In this document: piece after piece, positions 18,238 to 19,034 of the stretch | Position numbering within the stretch: the first letter of the stretch is position 1 | Layout: every line of letters begins with the position of its first letter | Origin: a virus | Lineage: Duplodnaviria; Heunggongvirae; Uroviricota; Caudoviricetes | Length of the DNA: 24,737 bases | IMG/VR virus record: IMGVR_UViG_2718218399_000013 | Reading direction: 5' to 3' (one strand) | Translations under genes and position numbers: made by a program | Notes under the pieces: generated by a model | The model's database searches: none | What the model was told of the DNA's origin: nothing | What the model saw: only the letters and a program-made list of their open reading frames with translations

Positions 18238-18741
18238 TCACCGGGCTTCGGTATAAGCGGGAAACCGCCAGCACGATAATATGCAGGAATTTCGCCGTTG
18301 AACTTCAACCATACAGACCACTGCGATAAGAGGCATTGCACGGACGCCAGAACGAACCCAATAGCTGGGCCCTTCTCCCAAACCAAGGTTTTGAAGAGCC
18401 GTTTTCACCGTGCCGTCCGATTTGATATCGCCAAACGGATTCTTGCGGCTCAGGTATTCAACAGCAAACCCCGATCCCAGCAATTCAACAAAACCGGGCA
18501 GATCACCATTATCAAGCACATCCCGTTGCGTTTTATCACTTACAAACTGGGCCAGAGCTGCAGCAATAAAGCTGGCCTGCCGAATAACCTTATTGACTTG
18601 CGCACTGGATGCTTTCCCTGCTGTAAATCCGGATATAAGCGCAGGCAACGCTTCCCATTCCTCCTGCGACATAACATTGGCATTTCGATCAGTTGCAAAC
18701 GCTTTAAAGTCATTTTTCGCCATCAGAGTAATACTCCCCAT
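18238..18741 (-). pseudogene. tail-fibre-like gene fragment whose 3' end crosses the distal pix site into the invertible segment
   Basis: [22 protein letters not shown] ... NLGLGEG, where GLGE is encoded by the pix site; only about 45 codons continue inside the segment; the 5' region overlaps the P-fusion ORF out of frame. Confidence 0.45.
18373..18398. repeat. pix/gix-type recombination site (distal), inverted relative to 16820-16845
   Basis: ttctcccaaaccaaggttttgaagag; 14-nt identity with the reverse complement of the proximal site. Confidence 0.6.
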
Positions 18742-19034
18742 GCCCCTACATCAAAACCACTGATGAATTCGTTATCCATATCAAAACCAAAAAATTTAGA
18801 GCCTTCCGATGGAGTTTCCACCGAAGGTGTTTCAATGCCCCCCGCCCATACCCCGGCGGCTTTTACTGTTAGATACCCCTGTTTAATTGCCGCAATTAAC
18901 TCACGCGATACATCTGAAATATCAGTATCAGGAAAGACCCAGACCGATATCGTCATGTCCTGGTTATCGATGTTGGCGATCCGACGCATCTGCTCACGGT
19001 CAAAGTTAACCATCTGTGCGGCGATGTTTTTCAT
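18723..19034 (-). pseudogene. lambda P 5' remnant (first 21 codons) fused to unrelated, probably tail-fibre-derived sequence
   Basis: MKNIAAQMVNFDREQMRRIAN matches the lambda P N-terminus, then diverges at about 18971; ATG overlaps the O stop as in lambda. Confidence 0.6.

Follow-up and report, generated by a model that had tools for sequence, protein, structure and literature searches.

A minus-strand open reading frame (ORF) at 18723–19034 of the window (the whole 24,737-nt stretch of DNA analysed here) encodes a protein of 103 aa that starts with MKNIAAQMVNFDREQMRRIAN. The original prediction, made from the sequence, held that this ORF opens with the N-terminus of lambda P, that P is joined at codon 21 to a tail-fibre gene fragment by a large deletion, and that a frame change then leads into a tail-fibre-like ORF. 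The locus raises the question of which two genes were joined, how the join arose, and what is left of the phage around it. Our whole explanation, to which we assign a probability of about 0.9, is that the ORF is a non-functional scar, or pseudogene, of a large deletion in the prophage Sp1 (CP-933H) at thrW in the O157:H7 lineage.

The element was identified by comparison with the Sakai genome. The window aligned with the Sakai locus over 9461–16978 and 17960–24737 with two mismatches in all, and the other differences were small gaps in one segment; over 18371–24737 there was a single mismatch. The matching stretch of Sakai is annotated as 'prophage Sp1, lambda-like phage' beside 'prophage Sp2, P4-like phage'. 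The region is the thrW–proA interval of an O157:H7-type chromosome with two tandem prophages, and full-length megablast matches were obtained in O157:H7 strains. The integration site, thrW tRNA-Thr (CGT), was located by ARAGORN at 23294–23369 on the minus strand, and its 3' 47 nt are repeated at 13012–13058, which is the other Sp1 boundary. Sp1 is CP-933H of EDL933, and the element in the window shares with it the integration at thrW, identical junctions, and near-identical DNA. Moreover, the ORF and its surroundings are DNA-identical to Sp1 of Sakai, in which the ORF is pseudogene ECs_0279 (312 nt), annotated as "replication protein P". The thrW site, the Sp2 neighbour, and the O pseudogene are also shared, and only the invertible fibre segment differs, being a deletion-riddled chimera of both orientations in the window.

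The first part of the ORF (18971–19034, minus strand) consists of nt 1–64 of a lambda-type gene P, i.e., 21 codons and the first base of codon 22. From 19034 down to 18971, 64 of 64 nt are identical to the P genes of phage ev099 and of the CT30 lambda-like prophage. This fragment, P', lies directly 3' of a lambda-type O gene, with an ATGA stop/start overlap at 19031–19034 as in ev099 and CT30. Given this complete identity and the position directly after O, the P N-terminus is no chance match. The prediction was therefore correct in recognising P at the start of the ORF and its truncation at codon 21, although the exact break lies after the first base of codon 22. Compared with lambda P, the fusion is identical in its first 21 residues and lacks 212 of the 233, the entire Pfam domain among them. 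The domain (PF06992, Phage_lambda_P) spans residues 38–198 of intact P, and the fusion retains residues 1–21 only. An hmmscan search returned no PF06992 match for the 103-aa ORF, compared with 5.4e-62 for intact ev099 P. The suggested alignment to lambda P thus extends only to nt 64, and the sequence beyond it does not align to a full-length P-family protein.

The partner of P is not a tail-fibre fragment, but the 3' third of a baseplate-wedge gene of the DUF2612 type. From 18970 down to 18723, 243 of 248 nt are identical to nt 434–681 of the 681-nt DUF2612 gene of the S163-2 and vB_EcoM-606R2 prophages (19844–20524 and 6524–7204, respectively, in the two compared loci). The remnant, 'DUF2612 (18723–18970, minus strand), covers codons 145–226, from base 2 of codon 145, and is in frame with P'. 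The intact 226-aa partner is a clear DUF2612 protein (PF11041, 2.5e-47, 161.6 bits), and the full-length wedge homologue matches PDB 7kh1, 'baseplate wedge protein gp17' (7.7e-5). As the last 36% of the gene, the remnant leaves about two thirds of the wedge protein missing, and the fusion scored 20.3 bits (6e-4) against PF11041 over profile positions 135–177 only, below the 23.5-bit gathering cut-off. Searches of NCBIfam with the fusion, wedge, and fibre proteins gave no matches.

The 3' end of the remnant was compared with intact relatives, in which the DUF2612 gene follows the baseplate J gene and lies just upstream of the tail-fibre gene. In the window, the remnant ends at the same 3' boundary as its counterparts in 606R2, S163-2, and Sakai, and the baseplate J gene is absent. 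The TGA stop codon of the fusion shares its A with the ATG of the tail-fibre gene (TGATG), and the same one-base overlap is annotated in Sakai, 606R2, and S163-2. What had been read as a frame change is this native stop/start overlap, which intact relatives also possess. The tail-fibre gene (17960–18723, minus strand, ATG at 18721–18723; ECs_0280 in Sakai) was matched by PHROG tail-fibre families, with values up to 6.5e-78. With its own start retained, the gene is intact at the 5' end; its first 353 nt are clean, and small deletions corrupt the remainder in the window. The 167-aa tail-fibre ORF followed in the prediction is probably an assembly artefact of the window, the Sakai gene encoding 264 aa.

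Comparison with the parent sequences placed the breakpoint, a deletion or an illegitimate join, at 18970/18971. The join in the window reads GCCAACA|TCGATAAC, and the junction is also read as ...GCCAACA|TCGATAACCAGG...; in intact P, GCCAACA is followed by ACATG, and in the DUF2612 parent ...GATAG is followed by TCGATAACCAGG, i.e., GATAG precedes TCGAT. In both parents, the cut follows codon position 1 (P codon 22 and wedge codon 145), which explains the in-frame fusion and yields a hybrid Ile codon. The chimera is composed of 21 aa of P, the hybrid Ile, and 81 aa of the wedge protein.

The distribution of the junction was examined with two probes. With a longer probe over the region, lambda-type O/P phages matched only from 18971 upward, and three myovirus records only up to 18970. 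A 181-nt junction probe gave full-length, 100% identical matches in 204 records, corresponding to 203 of the 5,426 complete E. coli genomes. Among the partial matches listed, the ends lay at or at most 2 bases from 18970/18971, with query positions 1–91 in DUF2612 genes and 92–181 (or 94–181) in P genes. These results bear on the possibility that an assembly error or a chimera in the window created the junction; in its favour, the invertible segment contains, at a distance of 350 nt, a stretch that resembles an artefact. However, the identical junction is present in all 204 complete-genome records, including those of Sakai and EDL933, and 18371 to 22032 is base-for-base identical to Sakai. The probability of an artefact is thus practically nil.

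The bases at the join also bear on how it was made. An intact pinE lies 2 kb away, the segment next to it inverts in the lineage, and the wedge side carries GATAACCAGG, which is loosely like AAACCAAGG of the crossover sites. These observations would agree with a site-specific deletion by the Pin invertase at secondary (quasi) crossover sites. Strand exchange by serine invertases takes place at a 2-bp overlap common to both sites. At the break, however, the two parents have no base in common (CA/AC in P and AG/TC in the wedge gene), and no crossover-site-like sequence was evident on the P side in a non-systematic inspection by eye. In addition, sequence comparison at 18970/18971 revealed zero bases of microhomology common to either parent and the product. 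As neither a shared 2-bp overlap nor microhomology exists at the break, both Pin-mediated and homology-driven joins were rejected, and we consider the involvement of Pin extremely improbable.

We also evaluated whether the 103-aa chimera might be a functional new protein kept by selection. The join is in frame, the ORF sequence is unchanged in every junction-bearing record among those listed, and the ORF is situated in an SOS-induced transcript. Nevertheless, an in-frame join has a 1-in-3 chance, and invariance is uninformative because the lineage is young and clonal. Furthermore, the chimera has lost the Pfam P domain as well as approximately the N-terminal two thirds of the wedge protein, and the frameshift in O breaks the translational coupling that would naturally link it to O. 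A selected function is thus very unlikely, and the ORF is better regarded as the scar of a deletion.

The tail-fibre gene downstream of the scar extends into a Pin-invertible tail-fibre segment (16827–18391), which is bounded by 20-nt inverted crossover sites at 16827–16846 and 18372–18391. These sites were found in the Sakai locus (7367–7386 and 9217–9236), where the inverted repeat is 20 nt long, 95% complementary, and flanks about 1.8 kb, and were then mapped onto the window. The ORF of the pinE DNA invertase (ECs_0284 in Sakai) lies at 16211–16765 on the minus strand. The segment was observed in both orientations among complete O157-type genomes, those of Sakai and strain 472 being opposite. 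The locus thus has the features of a Pin/Gin/Cin-type switch, namely a serine invertase beside a segment that is flanked by inverted crossover sites and found in both orientations.

In the window, the sequence of this segment is corrupted. Relative to Sakai, 16895–18370 shows about 150 deletions of 1–5 nt and nearly zero substitutions, all between the Pin crossover sites. The ends of the corrupted stretch follow the Sakai orientation and its middle follows the inverted one, i.e., the stretch is a position-wise chimera. The same deletion pattern was observed in the long-read O157 assembly of strain 472, in which PGAP labels the genes 'frameshifted', and no record among the complete genomes covered at least 80% of the corrupted segment. 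Reading the segment as its own reverse complement, or as one clean Sakai orientation, fitted in neither case. The iteron region was also discarded as the cause of the 96.7% identity to Sakai, because every gap falls within the invertible segment and Sakai has the iteron duplication as well. Judging from the pattern of gaps, the corrupted segment is probably a consensus artefact of a population mixed for the inversion, which would imply that Pin is active. The fibre, tfa, and alternative-fibre ORFs of the window, including the 167-aa one, are therefore unreliable; the coordinates of the scar ORF lie in clean sequence. This serves as a warning that the neighbouring invertible segment is untrustworthy in long-read assemblies.

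Neither the window ORF list nor the Sakai annotation contains a Q, lysis, head, or tail ORF in the interval from P' to the fibre cassette. The predicted absence of the genes between P and the fibres was thus borne out, with no ren, nin, Q, lysis, head, or tail-shaft genes in this position. In intact relatives, the interval that is missing here holds the ren/nin, Q, lysis, terminase, head, sheath, and tube genes and most baseplate genes. The ancestor would have been a mosaic lambdoid prophage with a thrW-type int, lambda-type immunity and O/P, a SEN34/S163-2-type myovirus late module, and a Pin-invertible fibre cassette. One illegitimate recombination may then have removed about 22–28 kb, a size estimated from the spacing in intact relatives, and with it ren, nin, Q, lysis, packaging, head, tail shaft, and most of the baseplate. 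Of the large deletion proposed originally, the loss of the material between P and the fibres is confirmed, and a single deletion inside one phage is only the simplest reading; on the sequence comparisons described below, we consider it the probable one.

The late half of the proposed ancestor resembles the SEN34-like temperate myoviruses and the 606R2, S163-2, and PEC148 prophages, which carry intact DUF2612, fibre, two tfa, alternative fibre tip, and invertase genes, with the same order and one-base overlap as here. Unlike Sp1, they have a full late region, and their replication genes are Rac-like or of other types, not lambda O/P. In S163-2 and PEC148, precisely this late module and Pin cassette accompany a lambdoid early region. 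For the immunity half, the closest relative is the CT30 lambda-like prophage, which is 97–99% identical over N'-cI-cro-cII-O-P' (18971–22361) and has a siphovirus tail.

Two further prophages at thrW were informative. MA11 (NZ_CP040314.1) carries a complete lambdoid myovirus prophage of ~37 kb at thrW between the outer arms of Sp1, with 99.3% identity to the window over 1–16846 and 99.8% over 22361–24737. It differs from Sp1 in its e14-like early region and its YmfQ/Mu-type baseplate, which is not of the DUF2612 type. As the arms match but the centre differs, the central part of the element has been exchanged between lineages. O55:H7 CB9615 (NC_013941.1, 302.6–348 kb), a relative of O157, carries a different complete lambda-like prophage at thrW, with lambda-type O/P and a siphovirus tail, and therefore the P'-'DUF2612 junction is not ancestral to CB9615. 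This CB9615 prophage also carries the NleG, EspM2, and NleB effector genes and is followed by an Sp2-like P4 element.

The same comparisons were used to weigh an origin from two co-resident prophages, one lambda-like and one a SEN34-like myovirus, in tandem at thrW or elsewhere, with illegitimate recombination between P and the wedge gene. No intact phage or prophage with a lambda-type P and the DUF2612 module was found in the phage collection searched by DNA, in the DUF2612 protein search, or with the junction probe in 5,426 genomes, and none of the inspected S163-2, PEC148, CT30, O55:H7 CB9615, and MA11 prophages has this combination. In three isolated phages with DNA-level similarity to the tail half, the probe matched at a single place, within that half, and 606R2, the only one of the three inspected, has a non-lambda replication region. 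The failure to find both halves together in an intact element favours two prophages, as do the siphovirus tails of the closest immunity/O/P relatives. In addition, tandem occupancy of thrW is real, since Sp1 and Sp2 share this site, and the fossil serU flank of the right arm indicates a composite history. However, lambdoid phages exchange modules freely, and each module of the single ancestor occurs in intact prophages in the same order and orientation. Two prophages would also require equal orientation and a longer deletion. We therefore regard this origin as possible, albeit rather unlikely, and retain the deletion within a single phage. The outcome of either origin is identical, namely a dead prophage with a scar ORF.

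The gene order of Sp1 is lambdoid, with int, cI, and N on one strand and cro, cII, O, P, wedge, and stf on the other. The lambda-type cI repressor gene (20699–21412, plus strand) is full length, a 237-aa ORF annotated as 'phage repressor protein CI' or LexA family. The lambda-type O gene (19031–19953, minus strand; Sakai pseudogene ECs_0277) is frameshifted and split into two overlapping ORFs. Compared with ev099 O, the frameshift is a 23-nt insertion, a perfect tandem duplication of one ori iteron at 19506–19561 that is shared with Sakai; For this repeat, TRF reported a period of 23, 2.4 copies, and a 100% match, and the duplication brings the number of iterons to five. A second junction lies at 22360/22361, where N', the first 20 codons of a lambda-type N according to ORF translation (22301–22360, plus strand), is joined to a thrW-type int without about 200 nt of its 5' end. 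The match to the CT30 lambda-like prophage ends at 22361, and the match to the MA11 int starts at 22361. The 324-aa 'int' ORF at 22305–23279 begins in out-of-frame N DNA.

In contrast to a functional lambdoid prophage, Sp1 thus has a 5'-truncated int, a frameshifted O, and a P cut at nt 64. The P–wedge deletion, the N'-int' deletion, and the O frameshift together indicate that Sp1 cannot replicate, excise, or build particles. The predicted loss of phage function agrees with published tests, in which the Sp1 repressor and Cro are conserved, Int is defective, Xis is absent, and replication is defective (Asadulghani et al., 2009; PMC2669165). The morphogenesis, packaging, and lysis functions are all absent, and Sp1 was scored as highly degraded (PMC2669165). 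No circularisation, replication, or packaging of Sp1 was observed (PMC2669165), which also answers the particle-production check suggested with the prediction. The residual early genes were clearly induced by mitomycin C without DNA amplification (PMC2669165). The scar was already annotated and the prophage already tested experimentally, and there is nothing new in the finding itself.

The position of the scar within the early operon has a consequence for transcription. The pR promoter (TTGACT-17-GATAAT, 20623–20651, minus strand) would read through cro, cII, O, and P'-'DUF2612 and into the tail-fibre gene. No terminator-like sites were predicted on the minus strand between 20600 and 17900. 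In lambda, tR2 lies downstream of P, and the region downstream of P is gone in Sp1. With pR present and no predicted minus-strand terminator as far as 17900, the fusion ORF and the fibre cassette would be part of the pR transcript, Q, pR', and any predicted terminator being absent from the intervening DNA. When the intact CI is cleaved in the SOS response, the fibre cassette would then be switched on directly. According to lambda biology, the truncation of N would make read-through of the Rho-dependent tR1 only partial. We infer pR read-through into the fibre cassette from this anatomy and from published expression tables. It fits the induction of early genes by mitomycin C (PMC2669165) and that of the CP-933H tail-fibre genes Z0314 and Z0316 by trimethoprim-sulfamethoxazole (logFC 6.0 and 5.3; PMC4048457), both of which would otherwise look odd for a Q-less phage. 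The anatomy may thus explain the induction of fibre genes by SOS antibiotics without a late regulator. Going further, the deletion might have wired an intact, Pin-switchable fibre and chaperone cassette to the SOS-controlled pR/CI circuit, and the cassette might have been kept for supplying fibres in trans or as a recombination substrate, altering the host range of co-resident phages. We consider this unlikely; if it were true, O157:H7 cells would make fibre proteins whenever Stx and other prophages are induced.

In itself, the locus represents ordinary prophage decay in a much-studied pathogen and matters little. The e14, Rac, DLP12, and Qin prophages of E. coli K-12 are likewise cryptic and internally deleted, and keep immunity and a few late genes. 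Among them, e14 also retains a Pin-invertible tail-fibre cassette beside baseplate-gene remnants. Compared with these K-12 prophages, the Sp1 breakpoint is known at single-base resolution and fuses the fibre cassette directly to the early pR operon, and the immunity/replication module is of lambda's own type. The junction represents a unique marker of the Sp1-bearing lineage at 2-nt resolution. Moreover, an annotation correction is warranted, because PGAP calls the baseplate-gene part a 'phage replication protein'. In strain 472, locus 3331–3642 is named by PGAP 'phage replication protein, missing N-terminus', a misleading name carried over from the P' part of the fusion.

Additional features were observed in the right arm and in Sp2. 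An ORF at 15329–16153, annotated as 'LEM-3-like GIY-YIG domain-containing protein' and conserved with MA11, lies between pinE and a serU-like stretch. The latter, at 14861–15209, comprises 349 nt with 96–98% identity to the core chromosomal yodB–serU intergenic region and the 3' 71 nt of tRNA-Ser serU (5,422 of 5,426 genomes), and no intact tRNA was detected within it. It looks like a fossil attachment site with host flank from a serU-integrating ancestor, and it is also present in the MA11 prophage. In the P4-like Sp2, a minus-strand ORF block at 8389–11665 beside the P4-type integrase corresponds to 'ABC-three component system' and 'AAA family ATPase' genes in MA11 and CB9615, and this block may be defence cargo of the satellite.
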